This document shows positions 16,692 through 36,485 of a DNA stretch of 64,000 nt, in pieces (within the stretch, counting starts at the first letter, position 1; the number at the start of each line of letters is the position of its first letter). Source of the DNA: Candidatus Fermentibacteraceae bacterium (GTDB lineage Bacteria; Fermentibacterota; Fermentibacteria; Fermentibacterales; JCC-6). The notes beneath the pieces were generated by a model. The model was not told the DNA's origin. It searched no databases and was given only the letters and a program-made list of their open reading frames with translations. The stretch covers positions 96,374 through 160,373 of the forward strand of contig JADGDO010000002.1 of NCBI GenBank assembly GCA_016744855.1. The letters run 5' to 3'. The translations under genes were made by a program, and so were the position numbers.

Positions 16692-17681
16692 TTGAAGAAA
16701 GCACTAATAACAGGCGGGGCTGGCTTTATCGGGTATCACCTTGCTTTACACCTATCCCGTAGGGGTTACAGTGTTGATTTGTTCGATAATTTCGGCCGGG
16801 ATATTCATGATAGTTTTCTTCAGGAACTGATCGGCTGCAAGAATGTTAATCTGCTCCATCTTAACCTTCAGGAGAGAACGGTATTTGACAAGTTGAGTTC
16901 AGACTACAACATCATCTACCATATCGCAGAAACTACGGGAGTTAAGACTCTTTCCAGGAGCCCGTATGATGCTCTTACCAATAATTTGAACATGCTTCAG
17001 AATGTTATTGATCTGTGCAGGCGGCAACTCAGGCTGGAGAGACTTGTCTTCACATCAACAAGTGAAGTCTACTCCGGAACACAAAAGCATTTCACTCTAC
17101 CGATTCCCACACCGGAGACAACACCTCTTACCATACCCGAACTGTCTGAGAAGAGAACACCATCCATACTCTCAAAGATATACGGAGAAGCTCTCTGTCT
17201 TCACTCCGGTCTTCCTGTAACCATTGTACGACCTCACAACTTCTATGGCCCCGGGATGGGTCTCTCGTCAGTTGTTCCGGAGCTATTGATGAAAGCATTA
17301 CTCGATGACGAAAGTGATCTTAGACTATTTTCCCCGGATCACCGCAGAACTTTCTGCTACATCGATGATGCTGTTGAGATGATGAGTATTCTCTCAGAAT
17401 CAAAAGATTCTCTTGGAGAAGTCTTCAATGTGGGTAACCAGGAACCGGAGATTACCATAAGAGTTCTGGCCGAAATGATTCTTACAATTGCAGGGGCAAA
17501 AATGAGCATAAAAACCGGCCCGGTTACCGAAGGTTGTCCTGTACGCCGTTGCCCTGACATGAGCAAAACAAGAAAAGTAATAGGATACAACTCTGCTGTT
17601 TCTCTCGAAGATGGCCTTAAGCGCACTTTTGAGTGGTATAAGATGAACGTATTTCTCAATCATGGAAACAGTACGGTATGA
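16692..17681 (+). CDS. NAD-dependent epimerase/dehydratase (extended SDR), catalytic Tyr apparently missing
   Basis: TGGAGFIG, STSEVY, RPHNFYGP, RTFCYIDD; YxxxK position reads SILSK. Confidence 0.85.
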   Translation: MKKALITGGAGFIGYHLALHLSRRGYSVDLFDNFGRDIHDSFLQELIGCKNVNLLHLNLQERTVFDKLSSDYNIIYHIAETTGVKTLSRSPYDALTNNLNMLQNVIDLCRRQLRLERLVFTSTSEVYSGTQKHFTLPIPTPETTPLTIPELSEKRTPSILSKIYGEALCLHSGLPVTIVRPHNFYGPGMGLSSVVPELLMKALLDDESDLRLFSPDHRRTFCYIDDAVEMMSILSESKDSLGEVFNVGNQEPEITIRVLAEMILTIAGAKMSIKTGPVTEGCPVRRCPDMSKTRKVIGYNSAVSLEDGLKRTFEWYKMNVFLNHGNSTV

Positions 17682-17712
17682 AAAAGGGCAGCCTTTGCGG
17701 CTGCCCTTTTTT
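17681..17712. terminator. Bidirectional intrinsic terminator
   Basis: AAAAAGGGCAGCC-TTTGC-GGCTGCCCTTTTTT between convergent genes. Confidence 0.88.
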
Positions 17713-17726
17713 GCATATCCTGAGGA

Positions 17727-18941
17727 TCAGTCCGTAAGGACCATTCTGCATGAAGACACATCTGAACCGCTTGTGGCAACAACAGTATAAACACCTGTGG
17801 CCAGTGAAGCAGCATCTATGGTGACAAGATTTGCACCCTCAGAGAGGCTTGAAGCATCTGTCGAGGCAACCTGTCTTCCACATGCATCAAAAACCCTGAG
17901 AGCTGCATTTCCACCCAGAGGTGCCTGCACAGTAATATTTAAAAGACCACGAGCCGGGTTAACGGCCGGTGTAACGGCAAAACCTGTCTGGATCTGAGCA
18001 GATGACTCATCTGCAGTTCCTGTAAGGTCTGCCATGTAAATGTAGACAAAGCCGTCGAAGTCACTGACGATAAGATCGGGAGTACCGTCTTCGTCCCAGT
18101 CGTTCACAGCGAGTCTTGTACCAGTATAGAGATCAAGTGGGCTACCATTACTCTGAACAGCCTCAAACCCGCTGAATGCCGGTGCTTCGTCTGTTCCAGT
18201 GTTCTCATAGTAGTAGATCTGTCCATTACTCTCACCCATTATCAGATCTTTTTTACCATCACCATTCATGTCATATACCTGTGGGCAGCAGCGATATCTG
18301 TTGATATCAGCCCCTGAGCTTTGAATGTAAGACCATGTAGTAAGAACCGGATCTGTGACAGTACCTGAATTCAGGTAAAGTCTGATTCCCTGTGAAGTGG
18401 ATTCGTTGGCAATAAGAAGATCAAGAAGACCGTCATTGTTCCAGTCTACAACGACAGGAGCAGAATTTGCACCAACATCTATTGCAGTTCCACTGGCTGT
18501 GATGTGACCAACTGAAGTGAGATCATCAACACCGGAACCCGTTCTTTCAAAGTAGGTTACAAAACCATTTCGATCTCCAACAATAATGTCATCAAGGCCG
18601 TCACCGTTCCAATCCGCAACCTGCGGATTTGTAGCGCCGGTGCATCAACCGGAAGGAAGGGTGATTGCTGTTCCATCTGCTTTGATATTTGTGAAACTGT
18701 TAAAAACGGGTGAATCGTTGGTGTTTTCATTCGCATAAAAACGAATGTTACCACTTGTGAAGACTCCAAGAACCATATCCTTGTTTCCATCACCATTCCA
18801 GTCGGCAATGCAGGGTGCTCCGTAGTAACCAACATCAATGACGTTACCGGCGCACTCCTGGTAGTAAAAAGACTGATATGCTGGAGCCTGTGCCATACAC
18901 AGAGCAGCTGCAATCAGAAGCAGAAAAACAAGTTTTTTCAT
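17727..18941 (-). CDS. FG-GAP/VCBS-repeat protein with T9SS C-terminal domain; in-frame TGA at 18645-18647 probably selenocysteine (404 aa, U99)
   Basis: The frame stays open for 125 codons after the TGA and joins ORF 17727-18269. Five DxNxDGxxD-type repeats; ...TLPSG*CTGATNPQVADWNGDG...; C-terminal NP...FDACGR...LATGVY CTD; SECIS-like hairpin just downstream of the TGA. Confidence 0.85.
18602..18642 (-). promoter_or_regulatory. Bacterial SECIS element candidate
   Basis: After TGA: lower stem CACCG/CGGTG, upper stem AATCCGCA/TGCGGATT, apical GGT 23 nt from the UGA; core GCAGGTTGC resembles E. coli fdhF GCAGGTCTGC. Confidence 0.78.
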
Positions 18942-18981: not shown

Positions 18982-19010
18982 AGAATACTTGATGTCCACT
19001 CCCTAGTCAA
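18982..19010 (-). promoter_or_regulatory. Sigma70-type promoter of the FG-GAP gene
   Basis: Minus strand TTGACT-17 nt-TATTCT; AAAGGAG RBS before ATG 18941. Confidence 0.6.
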
Positions 19011-19932: not shown

Positions 19933-20832
19933 TTACAGATATAAATCAGTAGTTTTTTTCCATCTTCTGTGAGACCACCAGTACAAATCAGGGTGCTCTT
20001 CGATCATCTTTTCAAGCACCTTGGTATACCGCTGTGTAAGTTCAACCTCTGCTTCATGTTTGGGCAGATCGCGGTTTGGAAGAAGAAATTCCTTCACTAC
20101 AAATCGCTGATATGGACCTTTTTCTCTGATCATGAAGCCGCACGTAATGGGCATATTCAGTTTCACACTGAAAGCAGCTGCTCCTCTTGGAGTTGATGCA
20201 GGGTGTCCGAAGAAATCCACCACCAGACCGTTCTTACCGGCACTCTGATCGCTGAGCCAGCAGACAATCCCGCCCTGCCTTGCTATTTTGATAATACCCC
20301 TCATTGATACATCTCTGGTAAGCAGCTTGGCCCCTTGAGAGGAACGCAATCTGTTTATGTACCCGTCAACCAGACTGTTGCGCTGTCTACCAACAAGAAA
20401 ACTGATTTCTTTTCCTAGAAAGGCATTAGATACACCGTAGTACTCCCAGTTCCCGAAGTGAAATGTTAAACCAATAACCCCGGTGGTGTGGCTCATTGCC
20501 TTTTCCAGAGCAGCAGTTTTCTCCACTGTTATGTATTTTTCAAAGTAGTTCCTGCCCATACGGCGCTGGCGAATAAACTCGACCATAAATCTTCCGTTGT
20601 TAGCATAGGAAGCGCTTCCGATTTGGTTTACCTCTGCAGCTGTTTTCTCTGGGAATGCAGTTGAAATATTTATTCTGGAAATTCTTCTTCTTACTCCGAG
20701 AAACCAGGCAATGCGCCCCAGCAATGCGCCACCCAACAGGGAACAGCGAAGAGGAACAATAGAAAGGAAAAATCCGGTTAACCGAGTAAGAGCATATTCA
20801 ATTTTGTGCATAAGAGTTACTTTTCGAGCCAT
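19933..20832 (-). CDS. lpxL: Lipid A late acyltransferase (LpxL/HtrB family)
   Basis: HFGNWE, DQ, FFG, YWWSHRRWK. Confidence 0.85.
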   Translation of the reverse strand: MARKVTLMHKIEYALTRLTGFFLSIVPLRCSLLGGALLGRIAWFLGVRRRISRINISTAFPEKTAAEVNQIGSASYANNGRFMVEFIRQRRMGRNYFEKYITVEKTAALEKAMSHTTGVIGLTFHFGNWEYYGVSNAFLGKEISFLVGRQRNSLVDGYINRLRSSQGAKLLTRDVSMRGIIKIARQGGIVCWLSDQSAGKNGLVVDFFGHPASTPRGAAAFSVKLNMPITCGFMIREKGPYQRFVVKEFLLPNRDLPKHEAEVELTQRYTKVLEKMIEEHPDLYWWSHRRWKKTTDLYL

Positions 20833-20833
20833 A

Positions 20834-21937
20834 TCATCTCCTCCCGAAGGGAAGTTTCAGATCAATTGCATTCTCCGGACAGAGTTCATGGCAGCACAGA
20901 CACATTATACAGGTGCCCTTCCGCATCTTTGCCCTTCCGTTTTTTATCTCAATTGCATCAACTGGACAAGCTCTCTTACAAACCCCGCAACCAGTACACA
21001 AATCATTTGAAACCGGGGCAGTTCTGAGAAGGAATCTGGCAGCAGCCCCGAGCCAGCGGGGTATGTAGTTCAAATAAGATCTCTCAGGAATGTCAAAATC
21101 CACAAATTTGTGGTGCCCGAGTGTTCTTATCTGCTCAAATGGATTCGCAAGCCCTCTGGAGAAAGCCTCTACATTACTGTCAAGTTGATTCCAGGGCAGA
21201 CCAGCCATCTGCGACAAAACCATATCAAGATGAAGACCATTCTTTGAAAGCGCAAGAAAGCCCTCTTTCTTCTTCCGTCCATCGGTGCTGGGCCCCCGTC
21301 CATCCATACACAAAATACCGTCACTGATATGCAAACTGAAATCTGCAATCTCGTAAAGATCTACAATGTTAACGGCCAGATCAACAGGCCGGGGGCTTCG
21401 CATGTGAAGCATAGCTTTCCCCAGGCCTGGAACAATACCGAATGAATTCTTCAAAGCGTTTGTCAATCTGGTGTACATATGAGTCTTAAATTTGCACAGA
21501 TTTACCCTGCAATCGTACCCCTCCAGAATCGGAAGTGCGATATCATATTCGCGGTCATGTATTGAAACACGTCTGGAGCCTGATCCCTCAAAGCTGACGA
21601 GCCCTGCCCCTGTTACATCTGCAGCTGTTTTAAAGCCGCAGTTTTTCCAGTATCGCTCAACACCTTTAACTGCACCACCGGGGCTGTCTCCTATATCGAC
21701 TACACATCCTCTTTCCTTTAAAAGCGAGGCAACAGCCGCGACTACAGCGGGATGGGTTGTAATTGCTCTTGAAGGATGCTTGGCTGCCAACATATTTACT
21801 TTCAGTAAAACTCTGCTGCCCTTTGATGTGCCCTCAGGCCAACCGCCGGTGCTCTCCACCATCTCCGCAATGGCACCACGTATTTTTTTAACACAGTAAA
21901 AGGAAAATCCATCCTTTATAACAACATCGTAATTCAT
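20834..21937 (-). CDS. DUF362 domain plus 2x[4Fe-4S] protein
   Basis: LLKVN, TTHP, GDSPG, KTH...ALKN; C-terminal CTGCGVC and CIMCLCC ferredoxin motifs. Confidence 0.88.
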   Translation of the reverse strand: MNYDVVIKDGFSFYCVKKIRGAIAEMVESTGGWPEGTSKGSRVLLKVNMLAAKHPSRAITTHPAVVAAVASLLKERGCVVDIGDSPGGAVKGVERYWKNCGFKTAADVTGAGLVSFEGSGSRRVSIHDREYDIALPILEGYDCRVNLCKFKTHMYTRLTNALKNSFGIVPGLGKAMLHMRSPRPVDLAVNIVDLYEIADFSLHISDGILCMDGRGPSTDGRKKKEGFLALSKNGLHLDMVLSQMAGLPWNQLDSNVEAFSRGLANPFEQIRTLGHHKFVDFDIPERSYLNYIPRWLGAAARFLLRTAPVSNDLCTGCGVCKRACPVDAIEIKNGRAKMRKGTCIMCLCCHELCPENAIDLKLPFGRR

Positions 21938-28372: not shown

Positions 28373-31300
28373 TCAGTTTACAGTTGCAAGAACTCCAGTG
28401 ACAGAAGATGACTGCCTGAAGATTCCACCCTCTGTCTCGGCTTCAATAACATAAATGTATGCACCAGAAGCGGGAAGGTCTCCATCTGTATCAAGGCCAT
28501 TCCAGAGAATCTGGTTGTATCCCTGGGAGCACTGCTTCGAGAAACGTGTGATACATCTACCACCCGTTGTATAAATAGAAACAGTAACAAAGGAATTGGA
28601 AGAAACTGAAAAACTGAAGCAACGCTGACCGGTTCCAGGATTGGGATATACCACATACTGATCTATTGCAACCTCACTCTTGTCGGTCGAATTCACATAA
28701 AGGCTATCCCTTGAAAGATTTCCTATTCCATCAATTGCCTGCAAAATGAAAAGGTGCCTGCCAGAAGCCAGACCGGAAACAGTGTAATCAAGCTGCCCAG
28801 TAACGGTAGATCCGGTATTGTAAGTGAAAGAATCACTTACATCAAATTCTTCATTATCAACGAATAGCTGAATGCTCTTACCAGTACCGCCCAGAAAGGT
28901 GATTCCTCCCGGGTCAGAAAGTTCTGCTTCAAGTATTCCCTCGCCTGTAACGGTCGGCTCATCAACACCGTTCTGACCTCGAATCCACATTGAAATATCA
29001 GGACCCTCAAAATCGGAAAGAGGTTCTCCTTCCACAAGAGCCAGGGGAGCATCAGCACCAAGTTCAACTCCACCCGAAACAATTGCGGTACCATTCACTC
29101 TAGCCAGATATCCTGTGCTGCAAGAGGTGGGGAGAATGCAATCGGCTGTAAACTCTCCATTGGTGATTTCCGCTCGTCCTCTCCATGCTGTTCCACCCTG
29201 ATGGAAATAGTCAATAACTCCACCGGACAGCATAGTGTAGTTAGCTGAGAAATCTGATTCAGATATCTCTATCAGAGCCAATCCATCAGAAGAATTAGCA
29301 GCTCCGGCTACAGAGTTAATCTCGCCGGAACGAAGAGTATCTCCTATAAGTTCAATCTCCAGATCATTAGCAGACATGGGAAGAATCAGATCCGGAAGAC
29401 CCATGAGAACATAGAATCTTGTATTCCCTGCTTTGTCGGCAATCAGTTTTCCTGCCCAAAATGAATAGCCAATTGAATTATTGCCCTCTGTAAGCAACGG
29501 AATCATAGCTGCTCCAAAGTTATAATTGGAAGATGAATAGGCGGGACCGGTAGCTCCTATTGTCGCTATCGCACCACCAGCAGGGTGGTAGACAAGTTTC
29601 TCAGCGATGCAGTCAACTCCGGGAACAAAAAACCTTGAAACATCGCAGGATAAGAAGAGGGCTATTGGTAATCTGGCACCGTTTGTAAGTGAGGCTGGAT
29701 CATCTCCGAGCATCACTTTCTCGTGAGCAATTTGGTTTGCGGATCCATGTCCGAAGTAGACCATAGCTCCCATGCCTTCATTCCAGAGATCTCTGAGTTC
29801 TTCCCTGGCATCAGGTTTTTCAGGATGAACATCGCCAACAACAGTACCGGAAGGCCATGGGAACTCTATAAGGTAGAATTTTTCGGGGTCTGCATAGTAG
29901 GGGAGATTTTCGTAACAAATTTGTTCCATATGATTAGTATGAACACTCTCACTAGCGGACGTATCTCCCTTACCCCATTCGTCATCTGCAAAAAGCACAA
30001 AGCGGCTGCACCATGAACCATCTGCCTGTCCGGAGTGGTAAAGAGTGCTCTTAGCACTTACAGCACCGAAACTGGATGTATCACCAGCAGGGATACGAGC
30101 TACAGGAATTTCCGGAGAATATGCACCGGGATGTACTTGAACAAACCAATCATCCTCTGCCCAGGAGGGGTAACCGCTGTCATTCGTAAGAAAAATCATT
30201 GCTGGAACGAGATCCGGAAGAGTTGTGCTGTACCCGAGAGGATCATAGTTAGCATCGCCACCAAGAATGAGTGTGGTTAGTGGTGTTGACCAGGAATCCA
30301 TACCCCAGCGTACAGCAGATCTTATTGCTCCGGGGTCCTTAACTCCTTGTCCGAATTCATCATAGATTTCGTTGGTTGTTGCGGTAACAACTTCAAGCCC
30401 CATGCTTTCCATAAGAGATACGATACCAATGGCATCGTCAGAAAAAATATCAGGAACAACCAGAAGCCTATCTCCAGATGAAACTGTTCCCACAAGTCTG
30501 CCCGGGGAGGCGGGCAGGATTGAAGCAACAGAATGCCAGTCATTCTCAGCAACAACGATAAGAGAAGTTGAATCCTGAAGAGTCATAGAGAATTTTAAAA
30601 GATCTGATGTCTGTTCCGCACCGGACAATATCAGTGGATTCATTAGATCGGTAACATCGAATGCGGAACTGCCACCTGTAAAAGAAAAATTATATCTGCC
30701 AGTTTGCCCGGGGAAGAAAACCCTTTTCCCCGATGCAACTGTTGAAATTGGATAAGTCAACTCAACATAGTCCACGTACAAATCTGCAGAGGGGTCATCA
30801 GAAGTAAAAGAGATTTGAAGCTGGTTGAGACTTGAGATATCTGCATCTTTGAATACGATCTCACGGCTACCTGAGCCGAACAGCTCAACAGATCCAATTC
30901 CTTGTATAGCTAGCGTATATGGCGAGGATTCTGTTACGGCAAATACAAGTTCAATGTCTGCGGTTCCAGCTGCTGCTGCAACATTAAAGGGTAGAGAACC
31001 CTGCTCTCCGGAATTGATTTTATCCCAGAACCATCCGGTTCTTAACTCGTACCTAGGTAACCAGTAACCACCATCTTCCAGGTGAATATGGTGCGCTATT
31101 GTATTACCCCAGTCAGGAGAAGAGTCAGGTGCACCAGGTTCGCTCTGCATCCTTGCACCTGATTCACCACCCCAGGTTAACCAGTATATGCGCTGAGTAG
31201 CGTAACGGTGGAAAAGCCATTCAAGAGCTCCATCGGAATACTCAAACCGATTCAATCCACCTGCAAGGAATCTGATGGTATCGCCTTCGTTAAAAACAGA

Positions 31301-32053
31301 GTCATTGTTATTATCATTTACAATCACTGCTACTGGCTCGAGATTGTGCTCGGCTGCAGGGGCCATTGCAAACTGAGTTCCAGGTCCGGAGAAAAGAGCC
31401 ATGCTTTGAACAGGAGAGCCAGTGACACTGCATCCGGCTGCTTCAAGCTCTGAACAGGTAACCTGATAACTGCCAGTGTCTTCAATTGATATTTTCGCCC
31501 ACGGCTTGCCCCAAAAAGGGCTTGAAGCTCTTGTCTGGTTGATGGGCCAGTATAGTTCTCCTTCTGCAATACCATAAAGAAGGTGATCCGCTGGGATTCT
31601 CTGCCCGGAGCGGGATTCAGCCCAGTCAAGAGACACATTCACTGAGGAAGTGAAACCATCTTCCGTAAATGGGTAAATGTTTATCACAGCAACTTGAGAA
31701 CCGCCGAGAGGAATTACTCCCTCGAGCTCAACAGTCTCTAGTGAAAGATCAACAGGTTCAGCCGGGACTTCGTGAGCATCAAGGCCAGAGCCCATCAGCA
31801 ATCCGGCCCTTGGAAAAGATATCGAATTGGTAGAAATACGTGATGAAACTACAGAACTGGTCAGTACAGGCTCAGCACCTGGTGGAACAGGGATAAAAAC
31901 GGTTTTAACTGGATACATCGGCACACCCGGTTCATTCAGGTTAACTGTTCCTTCAATTGTCGGAAATCCACCGGAATCAATCTCCGGCTGGGCGAAATTG
32001 AATGTACCTGTCCACGAGGCAACAAGAATTGCGATAATCGGGAAAACGGTCAT
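28373..32053 (-). CDS. C25 (gingipain-family) peptidase, PorU-like, with FlgD/T9SS CTD
   Basis: IYDEFG, GDANYD, VARIP, YFGHGS (His), LSC (Cys), GGAIA; C-terminal YPNP...WNG.D..G...SGAYIY. Confidence 0.85.
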   Translation of the reverse strand: MTVFPIIAILVASWTGTFNFAQPEIDSGGFPTIEGTVNLNEPGVPMYPVKTVFIPVPPGAEPVLTSSVVSSRISTNSISFPRAGLLMGSGLDAHEVPAEPVDLSLETVELEGVIPLGGSQVAVINIYPFTEDGFTSSVNVSLDWAESRSGQRIPADHLLYGIAEGELYWPINQTRASSPFWGKPWAKISIEDTGSYQVTCSELEAAGCSVTGSPVQSMALFSGPGTQFAMAPAAEHNLEPVAVIVNDNNNDSVFNEGDTIRFLAGGLNRFEYSDGALEWLFHRYATQRIYWLTWGGESGARMQSEPGAPDSSPDWGNTIAHHIHLEDGGYWLPRYELRTGWFWDKINSGEQGSLPFNVAAAAGTADIELVFAVTESSPYTLAIQGIGSVELFGSGSREIVFKDADISSLNQLQISFTSDDPSADLYVDYVELTYPISTVASGKRVFFPGQTGRYNFSFTGGSSAFDVTDLMNPLILSGAEQTSDLLKFSMTLQDSTSLIVVAENDWHSVASILPASPGRLVGTVSSGDRLLVVPDIFSDDAIGIVSLMESMGLEVVTATTNEIYDEFGQGVKDPGAIRSAVRWGMDSWSTPLTTLILGGDANYDPLGYSTTLPDLVPAMIFLTNDSGYPSWAEDDWFVQVHPGAYSPEIPVARIPAGDTSSFGAVSAKSTLYHSGQADGSWCSRFVLFADDEWGKGDTSASESVHTNHMEQICYENLPYYADPEKFYLIEFPWPSGTVVGDVHPEKPDAREELRDLWNEGMGAMVYFGHGSANQIAHEKVMLGDDPASLTNGARLPIALFLSCDVSRFFVPGVDCIAEKLVYHPAGGAIATIGATGPAYSSSNYNFGAAMIPLLTEGNNSIGYSFWAGKLIADKAGNTRFYVLMGLPDLILPMSANDLEIELIGDTLRSGEINSVAGAANSSDGLALIEISESDFSANYTMLSGGVIDYFHQGGTAWRGRAEITNGEFTADCILPTSCSTGYLARVNGTAIVSGGVELGADAPLALVEGEPLSDFEGPDISMWIRGQNGVDEPTVTGEGILEAELSDPGGITFLGGTGKSIQLFVDNEEFDVSDSFTYNTGSTVTGQLDYTVSGLASGRHLFILQAIDGIGNLSRDSLYVNSTDKSEVAIDQYVVYPNPGTGQRCFSFSVSSNSFVTVSIYTTGGRCITRFSKQCSQGYNQILWNGLDTDGDLPASGAYIYVIEAETEGGIFRQSSSVTGVLATVN

Positions 32054-32787: not shown

Positions 32788-35700
32788 GGACTCACAACCA
32801 GAACATCTGTAACAGCTGCATCGCCTGAACTGCTGGAAAACTCTATCAAATAAATGTAAGCCCCTGCTGCGATTGAGTCTCCGTCTTTATCCATACCATT
32901 CCAAAAAAGCTGTCCAGCTCCACTCTGCACAATTGTGTTGCCATTCCAAACCGGTCTTCCAGCAATTGTAAAAACTGTAACAGAGACTGTTCCGATGGAT
33001 GACGAGGTAAAGAAAAATGCTCTGGGACCCCGAACAGGATTCGGGAAAACTCCTGTTTTTTCAAGCAAAGGTGCTTCACCGTTTAATACGTTGAAGCTCA
33101 GAACTGCCTCACCAGTGTTCTTCATTCCATCCCTGGCAACCAACCGGAACTCATGAGTACCGGGAAGTAGATCAGGGAGTGAGTAATCCAGAGAACCTGT
33201 TGTGTAGCTTCCATGATTGTAGGTGAACAGATCAGTTAAATCTTCAAAACTGCCATCAACTGAACCGATAATTGTTGAACCAGCGTCATCTCCCAGAATA
33301 CAAATACCGGAAGAGTCGGAGATGACAGCATGCAATTCGGCATTCTGATAAACAGTCGGGATCTCGCCTCCAGCAGGTGAAGAAGGAAAGCTGAGAGTAA
33401 TATCGGGACCCTCGGAATCATCGCTGTGTGTGCCGGTATCAACAAGAGGCACAGGCCAGGCGAATCCCGTGCCCAGTTCCTCTCCGACTCTTCCAGTTGC
33501 ATCAACTCTAGCGAGAGAGCCCGTATCTGCCTGAAGAGGTACGAAGAAATCAACAGAAGCATCTCCCACCGGGTCTGTAGAAAGGATACTGCTGTAAAAT
33601 TCGGAACCGTAACGCAGGTACTGCATTTCACAATTATCTACAATTGAACTTACAAAAAAGATAGAATCTGCACTTTCCCGACAGCGGAACAGAAATGATG
33701 ATTCTTCGGGAAAAGTAACTTCTACTCTGTTGAGTAAACCTCTTCTGAGGGTGTCTGCTTCTTCTATATCGTAGCCGTTCGTTTCTGTTGTATGAAGAGT
33801 TATTCCCCCATCACCGAGAATGGGGTACTGGTAGTTATTAGCACCGCCAACCAGGCTAAGTTGTGACAACCAAAGAGCTTCGGCAATAGTAAAACTCCCA
33901 TCGTGCAATCTTGTAAGAAATTCTGCAGAAAGAAATCCGTTCTGACCCGTAGTACTTAAACGGGTACATGCAACAGTTGCAGCTGCTCCTCCTCCTGGAT
34001 GGAATAGAAGGGCTTCTGCAAGACAATCACCGGCAGATAGATCGAAAAAACCGGTAGAACAGGAAAAAGAGTTATAGAGAAAATATCTCGGCCCGTTTGT
34101 AAGGTTGCTGACCATGGCGGATGAAAAAAGCTTCTCATGAGTCATCTGATCATAAGAACCGTGACCAAAGAAAGATACGGAGACCACCCCACTGTTAAGC
34201 TGGTCTACAAAATCAGAAGAAGCCTCTGGTTTTGTCGGGTGAACGCCGCCCACAGTTGTTCCTACAGGCCAAGGATAGGCAATTTCGTAGAGTTTAAAAA
34301 TATTCGCTGAGGCGGGAATAATACTGTCTGCCAGCTGCTCGCAAATTCCGGTGTTTACTAGCTCAGAGGAACTCGCACTTTTACCCCACTCATCATCAGC
34401 GGCAAGAAGCACAGTGTTAGCCCATGGACCAAGATTCGAGGTATTCTCCAGAGCAACTGCTTTTTCAGAGGCAACAAGAAGATCATTCACAGTTGAAGCA
34501 GGAATTCTTGAGACAGGTATCTCAGGGTCCTGGCCGCCTGTGTGAACTGTGGTAAAATAAGAATCTGTACAACTACCGGTTTTCAATTCAACATGCACCG
34601 GAGCGATAGAATGATAACCGGTAGAATACCCGAGAGGATCATTGGAACCGTCTCCAATGAGAAGAAGAGCCTGGGGTGGATCGGGCCATGTATCGAGAGC
34701 CCACCTGACAAGAGACCTTACAGCACCGGGATCTGACACCCCCTGAGCAAACTCATCGTAAATCTCTTTATAGGTTACAACAGAGACAGATAGCCCACGG
34801 GAAGAATACAACGATTCAAGTACTCCCATCCCCTCATGCAAAACTTCGGGTACTGTAATAATTATGTCTGCCGGAGAGGAGGCACCAAGAATTCTTCCCG
34901 GCTGAGCTTGCTCAATAAACTCTGCAGAAAGATACGAAGAGGGATTCACAGCAAGCAGAGTGGAAACATCTCCCTGCATATCATAAGACAACTGAGCTTC
35001 AGATCCCTCAATAATCCAATCAGTCAGCCTTTTGGGGTCGTGGGGATAAGTAACATCATAGATTTCAGTACCCGAAGAAACAGAACCTATGTTCAATGAG
35101 TGAAGCCCGGGAGAATAATCAGAGAGTGAAACAAGATTGCCTGCTGAAGTAGACAGGTTTACCGGGAGCAGAATCTCAGCATAATTTAAAAAGGAGTCAC
35201 CGGAGATATCATTCCATACTTTCAGCAGGTTACCACCCTGTTGAATTGATACATTGTCGACTGTATATAGTTCGAATATTTGGCTTCCCATCGTGTCGAG
35301 GAAAAGAACATTCTCCATCTCAGCCCACACTGCATGAGTACTTATAGATGCATTGACTATAGAAAGTCTTACTGTGGCAAAATCAGAAGCAAAAGGTGCG
35401 CTGAGATAGAAGTAGCTCGGAAATGCTCCACTGAGAAAGCCCCAAACCCAACCAGTTCTGTATTCAGAAGAATCCCAAAAGACCTCTTCCTCGAAGCCGA
35501 AAGGAACCACTCCCTGCTCTATCGGGGAGCCTCCGGATGGGACTACAGGGACTTGATCAATCCTGGCTCCGTTTTCTCCACCCCATGTCAGCCAGTAGGT
35601 GTTGATTTCGTCATATCTGTTGTAAGATCGGAAAATAGAATCAGGAGTGAAATTCCAGTGCCACAACCCCTGACCGAAGAAAACAAGTGAATCGGATGAA

Positions 35701-36485
35701 TCAAAGATGCCATCCCCTCCATCGAATACAGAAATTGAGACAGAAGCCAGGTGATGTTCATCACCCGGATCCTCCGGATCAAACATCTCTGCTGGGCCCG
35801 AGAACATTCCGAGGGAAGCAGAGGGAGAACCTGTAACCATGCAGCCTGACGCTTCCAGTTCCTCTCCTGAGATACTGTATACCCCTGTATTTTCAACACC
35901 GATACGTGCCCATGGCTTACCCCAGAAGGGGCTCTCCACTGAGCCCGGTCTGGTGTAGGGCCACCAAACTTCAGCATCAGGGCACAGTTCCTGTAGAAGA
36001 GTGCCATCAAGAGATCTACCGGAAGATCTTTCGTTAAATGATAGAGAATAGTTTATTTCACGCGCATAGACAGTTGATCTTCCATAGCAAAATGGGGAAA
36101 CTGACACCTTTGCTACAGTAGTACCCAGAAGATGTATTACTTCAAAAGAGACAGGAGGATGTTCAGTGGGAAACTCAACGGGCAGAAATGTTTCAACTGT
36201 CTGCAACCCTGTCCCTGAAAGAATAGGAGCAGAGGCAAGCTGAAAATGTCGATCCCAACCTGTATTTCCAGTGGCAGCAACATCCCAATCCAGATGGATT
36301 TCTGAGCCCGGAGGTACCGGAAAATACTGGACAGTACCGGGGAGCATTGCTCCGGCATCGGATTCCATAGCATACATGTCGGGTATGATTATTGAACTCA
36401 ACCCATCAGCCTCTCGAAGGTAAGGTTCGCCAACCTCAACAACAGCAACGTGTTCCATCGCTATTATTGCAAGAGCAAACAGCAT
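32784..36485 (-). CDS. Second PorU-like C25 peptidase with FlgD/T9SS CTD
   Basis: IYDEFA, IGDG, VSRIP, FFGHGS, FSC, FPNP...WNG.D..G...GAYIY; paralog of 28373-32053. Confidence 0.85.
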   Translation of the reverse strand: MLFALAIIAMEHVAVVEVGEPYLREADGLSSIIIPDMYAMESDAGAMLPGTVQYFPVPPGSEIHLDWDVAATGNTGWDRHFQLASAPILSGTGLQTVETFLPVEFPTEHPPVSFEVIHLLGTTVAKVSVSPFCYGRSTVYAREINYSLSFNERSSGRSLDGTLLQELCPDAEVWWPYTRPGSVESPFWGKPWARIGVENTGVYSISGEELEASGCMVTGSPSASLGMFSGPAEMFDPEDPGDEHHLASVSISVFDGGDGIFDSSDSLVFFGQGLWHWNFTPDSIFRSYNRYDEINTYWLTWGGENGARIDQVPVVPSGGSPIEQGVVPFGFEEEVFWDSSEYRTGWVWGFLSGAFPSYFYLSAPFASDFATVRLSIVNASISTHAVWAEMENVLFLDTMGSQIFELYTVDNVSIQQGGNLLKVWNDISGDSFLNYAEILLPVNLSTSAGNLVSLSDYSPGLHSLNIGSVSSGTEIYDVTYPHDPKRLTDWIIEGSEAQLSYDMQGDVSTLLAVNPSSYLSAEFIEQAQPGRILGASSPADIIITVPEVLHEGMGVLESLYSSRGLSVSVVTYKEIYDEFAQGVSDPGAVRSLVRWALDTWPDPPQALLLIGDGSNDPLGYSTGYHSIAPVHVELKTGSCTDSYFTTVHTGGQDPEIPVSRIPASTVNDLLVASEKAVALENTSNLGPWANTVLLAADDEWGKSASSSELVNTGICEQLADSIIPASANIFKLYEIAYPWPVGTTVGGVHPTKPEASSDFVDQLNSGVVSVSFFGHGSYDQMTHEKLFSSAMVSNLTNGPRYFLYNSFSCSTGFFDLSAGDCLAEALLFHPGGGAAATVACTRLSTTGQNGFLSAEFLTRLHDGSFTIAEALWLSQLSLVGGANNYQYPILGDGGITLHTTETNGYDIEEADTLRRGLLNRVEVTFPEESSFLFRCRESADSIFFVSSIVDNCEMQYLRYGSEFYSSILSTDPVGDASVDFFVPLQADTGSLARVDATGRVGEELGTGFAWPVPLVDTGTHSDDSEGPDITLSFPSSPAGGEIPTVYQNAELHAVISDSSGICILGDDAGSTIIGSVDGSFEDLTDLFTYNHGSYTTGSLDYSLPDLLPGTHEFRLVARDGMKNTGEAVLSFNVLNGEAPLLEKTGVFPNPVRGPRAFFFTSSSIGTVSVTVFTIAGRPVWNGNTIVQSGAGQLFWNGMDKDGDSIAAGAYIYLIEFSSSSGDAAVTDVLVVSP

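Follow-up and report, generated by a model that had tools for sequence, protein, structure and literature searches.

Is an in-frame TGA a stop that truncates a gene, or does it specify selenocysteine (Sec), and does the RNA just behind it carry the signal for this decoding? The question is raised by a gene on the minus strand of the DNA analysed here (the window: a stretch of 64,000 nucleotides (nt) from Candidatus Fermentibacteraceae bacterium). This gene would encode an exported protein made of FG-GAP-type repeats; its codon 99 is a TGA (UGA99 in the RNA) and a hairpin follows this codon. Our analysis indicates that the hairpin is very probably a canonical SelB-dependent selenocysteine insertion sequence (SECIS), formed by its upper stem only, and that UGA99 is very probably recoded to Sec. 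A first-pass annotation of the same DNA had proposed such an element. This reading is supported by the conservation of the hairpin in homologues, by the contrast between Sec forms and cysteine (Cys) forms of the family, by the fit to the model of bacterial SECIS (bSECIS) and by the likeness to a selD hairpin of the same genome.

A hairpin downstream of the in-frame UGA

The gene starts with an ATG at 18941 and ends with a TGA at 17729-17727. Only one in-frame TGA precedes this stop, at 18647-18645. On the minus strand, the RNA from 18647 to 18602 reads UGA-UG-CACCG-GCGCUACA-AAUCCGCA-GGU-UGCGGAUU-GGAA-CGGUG, which matches exactly the sequence and position given in the first-pass annotation. The upper stem has 8 base pairs (bp) and begins 15 nt past the UGA; its loop begins 23 nt past the UGA, as had been stated. 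This upper hairpin also codes for Asn-Pro-Gln-Val-Ala-Asp-Trp, which corresponds to strand 104-109 of the protein. RNAfold reproduces both annotated stems: the 46-nt element adopts the two-stem structure at -16.5 kcal/mol (z = -1.75; 10 of 200 shuffles as stable). The 19-nt upper hairpin (18629-18611) reaches -9.2 kcal/mol (z = -3.56), a stability attained by none of 200 shuffles. An Rfam scan of 18450-18750 with E-values up to 10 returned three chance-level matches and no SECIS family.

Conservation of the UGA codon in the family

Nine full-length paralogues are encoded by the source genome, each with one in-frame TGA. The TGA lies at the aligned position in 44/44 read-through open reading frames (ORFs; 40 distinct, from 38 loci of the source genome and its relatives), usually in the context G-U-C-T-G-A-T-N-P-Q-V-V-D-W-N, where U is Sec. 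It is also carried by 102/103 among the matches listed from 70 genomes of the phylum (E-value of 1e-60 or better). Protein conservation continues past the TGA and is strong on both sides of it. Furthermore, Sec forms occur in contigs labelled KSB1, WOR-3, Caldithrix, Gemmatimonadota and Nitrospirae, among others. The family has two conserved Cys/Sec columns only, 99 and 100 (54/56 and 55/56 sequences).

The 80 metagenome relatives comprise 44 Sec forms, 11 Cys forms and 25 forms without the site. In the last class, 22 loci are gapped at the site in the alignment: they encode ordinary FG-GAP proteins that lack both the Sec/Cys loop and the TGA. Sec/Cys exchange is seen in L131 (D-C-P-V-S-G-A-T-S-P-R versus Sec in the C-U-P-K-T-G-A-R-N-P-Q subfamily), in L112, a Cys-Cys form (Y-C-C-I-G), and in P0112, P0113 and P0120 (G-C-[LQ]-G versus G-U-[ML]-G in L104 and L109). 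In some Cys forms the Asp is replaced by Tyr or His, and some subfamilies show a shifted hairpin register. In some members from other phyla (L104 and L109; L137, L139, L140 and L146), the TGA is located one codon later (S-G-U-M-G, G-G-U-L-G, G-U-Q-G-S-Y-P): Sec replaces Cys in the U-C pair, with a matching shift in the register of the hairpin.

Three other full-length homologues, ~52% identical (P0022, P0023 and P0024), have G-A-W-G-P-I in place of the G-U-C-T-G-A-T loop. Their loop is one residue shorter and contains no Cys, and N-P-Q-V-A-D-W is kept (Y-G-A-W-G-P-I-N-P-Q-V-A-D-W). They were not found among the 70 genomes of the phylum (best identity 55%) and constitute an old Sec-less lineage.

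The upper stem as the conserved element

The hairpin was followed in an alignment of 56 distinct Sec forms, 43 from Fermentibacteria and 13 from other phyla. A 5-bp core is kept in all 56 TGA-bearing homologues, the individual core pairs being present in 54-56 of them, the upper helix being formed in 89.1% of cells. The pair between columns 36 and 44 (position 3 of the Pro codon with position 2 of the Val/Ala codon) is A-U in 36 sequences, G-C in 14 and G-U in four. The two remaining rows are those with the TGA one codon later, and no A-C mismatch is found among the 54 registered sequences. The search for covariation suggested with the first annotation thus yields one compensating core pair. 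The covariation score and the paired percentage of the alignment were reached by 0/500 shuffles. The structure is 79.8% paired in register, and 22-38% when the 3' partners are slid by 1-3 columns. RNAalifold independently retains exactly the 5-bp core and drops the lower stem.

The lower helix is formed in 65% of cells; of its inner pairs (numbered by column), 19:57 is broken in 34 of the 56 sequences, 20:56 in 30 and 21:55 in 28. Even in close orthologues, the Gly codon GGU is replaced by GGC, which breaks an A-U pair of this stem. Since the inner pairs are broken in 28-34 of the sequences, the lower stem probably does not belong to the functional element. For this sequence, the minimum-energy fold and the centroid fold both contain the two stems, which would agree with a SECIS comprising the whole two-stem structure (upper stem plus 5-bp lower stem). 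However, given the broken inner pairs, the GGC change and the RNAalifold consensus, we consider this unlikely. Hence, in the two-stem element of the first-pass annotation, the upper stem is conserved, whereas the 5-bp lower stem is broken in many homologues. The functional element would be the upper stem, with a 5-bp core extending to 6-8 bp, and the lower stem would be incidental.

Constraint on the RNA beyond the protein

The whole stem is contained in a conserved coding strand. It could therefore be a by-product of the conserved peptide (Asn-Pro-Gln-Val-Val-Asp-Trp) and of codon bias, without any RNA function. Codon choice argues against this view. Of the 43 Fermentibacteria rows, one is misregistered; for the other 42, the stem codons were compared with codon usage elsewhere in the same genes. 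Asn is encoded by AAT in 39/39 cases (34% elsewhere), Pro by CCA or CCG in 42/42 (47% elsewhere) and the Val before Asp by GTG in 36/36 (25% elsewhere). When Ala occupies this Val position, GCG is used in 6/6 cases (17% elsewhere), and Asp is encoded by GAT in 33/43 (42% elsewhere). The Gln codon is uninformative, CAG being found in 42/42 and in 88% of cases elsewhere. Minority synonymous codons are thus used in the stem, while flanking Gly, Ala and Thr codons are free to vary in the same alignment. The synonymous sites of the stem are frozen on choices that depart from the usual codon preference of these genes. The compensating pair, with its lack of A-C cases, speaks in the same direction.

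Other repeats and other forms of the family provide further controls. The repeat that follows the UGA makes on average 5.79 of 6 core pairs in register (n = 43), all six being formed in 36/43, versus 2.69 of 6 in the remaining FG-GAP repeats of these genes (n = 158), with all six in ~1%. In this gene, the corresponding segment of repeat 4 (TGCCCACAGGTATATGACATG) makes one of the six core pairs in the same register, which bears out the contrast drawn in the first annotation. In the metagenome relatives, the hairpin was sought at all 80 loci in a 27-nt window anchored on the protein alignment and not on the RNA. A stem of at least 5 bp is found in 43/44 Sec forms, 1/11 Cys forms and 5/25 forms without the site, and one of at least 6 bp in 38/44, 0/11 and 2/25, respectively. 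It was not found in two further Cys forms, L131 and L112. The hairpin is thus neither absent from TGA-containing homologues nor equally present in Cys-containing ones, the two outcomes against which the first-pass annotation had set its SECIS reading.

Moreover, subfamilies with other peptides keep stems of different sequence (GUCCACG/CGUGGAC, CAGUCGC/GCGACUG, CCGCGC/GCGCGG and UUCAGUC/GACUGGA). In these subfamilies, as in the metagenome Sec forms, the loop starts 19-23 nt past the UGA. Because a stem of different sequence is kept at the same distance, a peptide-driven artefact is unlikely.

Several points nevertheless weigh against a SECIS-directed insertion of Sec. (i) The sequence by itself is only mildly unusual and proves nothing, since 3.45% of the 2552 TGA triplets of the window (any frame, both strands, loop 12-32 nt downstream) precede a contiguous stem of at least 8 bp. 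In context, the single sequence also folds weakly (z = -0.91, not significant, for 71 nt; z = -1.75 for 46 nt). It is the homologues, when compared, that carry the weight. (ii) These homologues are related, so the counts overstate independent support, and four of the five core pairs are invariant, hence uninformative on pairing. (iii) The 11 metagenome Cys forms mostly belong to one subfamily (CFPRVVYWD). (iv) A Sec-less tandem paralogue, L130 (= P0034), with Gly-Glu-Thr for Gly-Sec-Cys, retains an identical hairpin.

The invariant pairs and L130 are also what the by-product explanation has in its favour. L130 belongs to a different genome, where a tandem FG-GAP pair (G049:C35:13300-16900) has one Gly-Sec-Cys and one Gly-Glu-Thr member. 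Compared with the neighbouring Sec member, it is 86.2% identical in DNA and 81% in protein, with a different codon at 54 of the 328 positions where the residue is the same. By our own arithmetic, the chance of the six codons staying unchanged is ~0.35. Since this is expected about one time in three, L130 is too recently diverged and is uninformative either way; it looks like a recent loss of Sec. Considering the frozen codons, the compensating pair, the differently sequenced stems of other subfamilies and the general lack of the stem in Cys forms, forms without the site and other repeats, a mere by-product of the peptide appears very improbable.

Selenocysteine machinery and decoding of the UGA

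The genome encodes a complete Sec pathway. The tRNA-Sec gene (selC, contig C9) scores 68.1 bits, over the cut-off, and is called SeC with anticodon tca by ARAGORN. SelB (316.6 bits) and SelA (502.9 bits) both exceed curated cut-offs. In addition, there are two Sec-type selD genes, likewise over the cut-off, each with one in-frame TGA. One of them, on C85, was located by protein family and not by RNA. It has a hairpin UCCCGGCA-GGU-UGUCGGGA whose loop lies 22 nt past the UGA; that of the other, on C10, has a GGC loop, also 22 nt past the UGA. The comparison with SECIS of known selenoproteins of the same genome, advised in the first-pass annotation, thus reveals a resemblance to the selD hairpin.

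TGA doubles as a true stop in this genome: the gene itself ends with a TGA followed by a terminator-like hairpin (17681-17711), which marks its true end. These data bear on the possibility that the UGA is recoded without SelB or SECIS, by insertion of Trp, Cys or Gly or through an altered code, the hairpin merely slowing the ribosome. Stop-codon read-through stimulated by a downstream structure exists in other systems, and the selenium of this protein is itself predicted from sequence. However, the complete Sec pathway, the use of TGA as the gene's own stop, the likeness to the selD hairpin and the replacement of Sec by Cys in L131, L112, P0112, P0113 and P0120, a classic Sec/Cys signature, make recoding of this kind a highly improbable explanation.

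Finally, a pseudogene or a pair of genes, with the TGA as true stop or assembly error, would agree with public gene calls, which treat the TGA as a stop (the best 120 database matches, named 'T9SS type A sorting domain-containing protein' or 'FG-GAP-like repeat-containing protein', are mostly proteins of ~250-300 residues covering ~72% of the query), but is effectively refuted by conservation, i.e. by the same TGA in 102/103 among the matches listed and in several other phyla and by the strong protein conservation on both sides, the read-through protein being moreover modelled as one propeller.

The protein, its predicted route and its genomic context

The read-through product has 404 residues and consists of a hydrophobic leader, five FG-GAP-type repeats and a C-terminal sorting domain of the type IX secretion system (T9SS). 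Pfam recognises FG-GAP_3 in four stretches (E-value 1.5e-25) and Por_Secre_tail (PF18962; 31.3 bits, cut-off 27). Among NCBIfam models, the sorting domain alone is recognised (TIGR04183; 29 bits, cut-off 23; residues 328-401). An AlphaFold2 model built from a 52-sequence alignment (mean predicted local distance difference test, pLDDT, 91.3) shows a propeller with repeated four-strand blades, followed by a beta-sandwich tail. Sec99-Cys100 is placed in the loop immediately before strand 104-109, the first strand of blade 2. The hairpin stretch is thus dual-coding, being both an RNA element and the first strand of this blade. Foldseek searches against the PDB returned generic propellers only (integrin alpha, CRTAC1, BBSome), with E-values of 1e-6 to 5e-9 and template modelling scores (TM-scores) of 0.3-0.4.

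We infer SelB binding, Sec insertion and export to proceed as follows. During translation, SelB with GTP and Sec-tRNA(Sec) would bind the GGU-capped stem and would deliver Sec to UGA99 in the ribosomal A site. The full-length 404-residue protein with vicinal Sec99-Cys100 would then be made, and it would be exported by the Sec secretion pathway, then by the T9SS. The Sec-Cys pair is a putative selenenylsulfide redox or metal-binding centre. As the first-pass annotation had calculated, a stop at the UGA gives a product of 98 residues without the sorting domain. Because of this truncated fragment, a display dependent on selenium, put forward there as speculation, is plausible.

Of the T9SS machinery, the search of the genome covered SprA and PorU: a homologue of SprA is over the cut-off (416.7 bits summed), and the best score of a PorU-like sortase is 405.9 bits, just under the cut-off of 420. 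Two minus-strand ORFs of the window, 28433-31504 and 32820-35915, ~10-17 kb from the selenoprotein gene, match PorU nearly end to end (405.9 and 248.9 + 108.7 bits, all below 420).

Table 1. Location of the selenoprotein gene, of its RNA and protein features and of related genes of the same genome. Plain numbers are positions in the window; C numbers designate contigs of the genome.
Feature	Location	Strand	Remarks
Selenoprotein gene (predicted)	17727..18941	-	404 codons + terminal TGA stop; translation with TGA = U
Probable signal peptide	18888..18941	-	~residues 1-18, MKKLVFLLLIAAALCMAQ; from hydrophobic N-terminal helix, model residues 2-16
In-frame UGA, codon 99, probably read as Sec	18645..18647	-	aligned TGA in homologues and sel genes in genome
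Cys100 codon	18642..18644	-	predicted vicinal Sec-Cys pair (G-U-C-T-G); conserved column
Predicted SECIS, upper hairpin	18611..18629	-	arm AAUCCGCA 18629-18622, loop GGU 18621-18619, arm UGCGGAUU 18618-18611
Conserved hairpin core	18613..18627	-	UCCGC 18627-18623 pairs with GCGGA 18617-18613 around (A)GGU(U); pair G18624-C18616 covaries
Span closed by lower stem	18602..18642	-	CACCG 18642-18638 with CGGUG 18606-18602; found in this gene, unconserved
T9SS type A C-terminal sorting domain	17739..17960	-	residues 328-401; TIGR04183, PF18962; beta-sandwich in model
Intrinsic-terminator-like hairpin	17681..17711	-	AAAAAGGGCAGCC-GCAAA-GGCUGCCCUUUUU; 13-bp stem then U run, 15 nt past terminal TGA
Promoter-like site	18982..19010	-	TTGACT-17-TATTCT; upstream of start codon; consensus match only, 9/12 positions
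selD L018	C85:30587-31507		A-C-A-G-U-A-G-K; selA and selB adjoin
selD L019	C10:33589-34512		P-C-A-G-U-A-G-K
Candidate L212	C19:284587-285594		DUF6923-like (L212/L213: C-U-G-G and G-G-U-G); Pfam tail: no hit
Candidate L213	C74:18898-19872		DUF6923-like (L212/L213: C-U-G-G and G-G-U-G); Pfam tail under cut-off
Candidate L214	C30:332789-333844		T-C-U-G; Pfam tail: no hit; BLAST match to tail of the selenoprotein gene
Candidate L215	C107:18682-19725		T-G-U-G-S-C; Por_Secre_tail over cut-off
Candidate L216	C107:19796-20857		T-G-U-G-S-C; Por_Secre_tail over cut-off
Candidate L217	C74:42685-44901		Sortilin/BNR-like; Pfam tail: no hit

Promoter-like matches in the region (4) are not clearly more numerous than in shuffles (2.5 +/- 1.4). 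The terminator-like hairpin has an A run on one side and a U run on the other, and is likely a bidirectional intrinsic terminator common to the convergent epimerase gene (16692-17681). A gene for a DUF362 protein that ends in a 4Fe-4S dicluster domain (20834-21937, minus strand) stands upstream of a lipid A acyltransferase gene (19933-20832). No functional link to the selenoprotein is evident from these neighbours (lipid A acyltransferase, DUF362/4Fe-4S protein and NAD epimerase).

Other candidate exported selenoproteins

A genome-wide scan for hairpins returned 89 matches, mostly noise. The scan led to six further genes (L212-L217). Each starts with a leader at the N terminus, has a GG-loop hairpin behind its single in-frame TGA and, by eye, ends in a T9SS-like tail. 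Since the scan demanded GG at the start of the loop, the GG loops of these genes are there by construction and are not evidence. The TGA is found in 52/52 among the matches listed for the L212 family (21 genomes) and in most of the closer matches of the L215 family, the more distant ones lacking it. Grouped into four other families, the six genes are candidates for exported selenoproteins.

Nine FG-GAP propellers and at least four T9SS-tailed candidate families can thus be set beside SelD, the only classical cytoplasmic selenoprotein confirmed. This suggests that much of the selenoproteome of the lineage is exported. Searches of the genome for GrdA (PF04723) and GrdB (PF07355) were blank; as the controls were blank in every genome, these searches are uninformative and absence is not claimed. 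Nor is it claimed for the formate dehydrogenase alpha subunit, for which one sub-threshold match, without a stop, was obtained in the genome.

A broader proposal can only be put forward tentatively, and we hold it to be rather doubtful: the Sec machinery of Fermentibacteria might mainly serve proteins that leave the cell, Sec99-Cys100 might be a surface selenenylsulfide redox centre or a metal/metalloid centre, and selenium might gate the display of the surface coat. Candidatus Sabulitectum, of the Fermentibacteraceae, is described as a strictly anaerobic fermenter (10.1101/146886); the portion of this preprint's text covered here does not mention selenium.

Whatever its role, the family consists of multi-copy, multi-phylum FG-GAP propellers, predicted to be exported, with a vicinal Sec-Cys pair and cut at the UGA by gene callers. 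Hence, correct annotation would restore the signal peptide and the first blade of hundreds of truncated entries. It would also enlarge the known extracytoplasmic selenoproteome and provide a short, well-defined SECIS from an uncultured phylum. Besides, the 19-nt stretch is a clean natural case of protein and RNA constraint on the same bases.

Comparison with known systems

No published description of an FG-GAP selenoprotein family was found in the full-text literature, subscription-only papers and supplements being outside the search. In particular, a term search of the main text of a 2026 review for FG-GAP, propeller, secreted and Fermentibacter was negative. The CU/UC-dipeptide selenoproteins described by Haft (10.1101/2022.07.06.499078) likewise have a vicinal Cys/Sec pair and database entries cut at the UGA, but they are of another fold and family. 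The terms FG-GAP, propeller, T9SS, secreted and sorting are absent from the preprint text that was searched.

According to the bSECIS model (legend of Fig. 2 in PMC13188914), a loop of 3-9 nt is carried by an upper stem of 4-16 bp, at least one G occupies the first two loop positions (mostly G then G or U), the loop lies 16-37 nt from the UGA and the minimum free energy is -7.5 kcal/mol or lower. The FG-GAP hairpin falls within all four limits: a 3-nt loop on an 8-bp stem, GGU, 23 nt, and -9.2 (19 nt) or -16.5 (46 nt) kcal/mol. The consensus loop in the alignment is GGT, and GAU, GGC, GGG and 5-nt loops also occur in other phyla; in the C-U-P-K subfamily, the distance between UGA and loop is 26 nt.

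The prototype of bacterial SECIS, that of E. coli fdhF, is likewise an in-coding stem-loop just past an in-frame UGA. SelB contacts a GGU(C) motif in its loop, and SECIS of this type have a bulged U. This bulged U is not evident in the FG-GAP hairpin, whose stem sequence is dictated by the FG-GAP beta-strand. Another counterpart is the predicted selD SECIS on C85 of the same genome, with a near-identical CA-GGU-UG apex and a loop at 22 nt instead of 23. However, the stem sequences of the two hairpins are unrelated, and selD encodes a cytoplasmic enzyme of the Sec pathway.

As for the protein, its FG-GAP_3 repeats and Por_Secre_tail place it beside FG-GAP/VCBS propellers (the integrin alpha head, CRTAC1 and BBSome) that are T9SS cargo. 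It differs from them by having five repeats and not seven and by its loop before blade 2 with the Sec-Cys pair, which is missing in ordinary members. The mechanism proposed here (UGA, SECIS and SelB) would be an ordinary one, and it is the host protein that is unusual.

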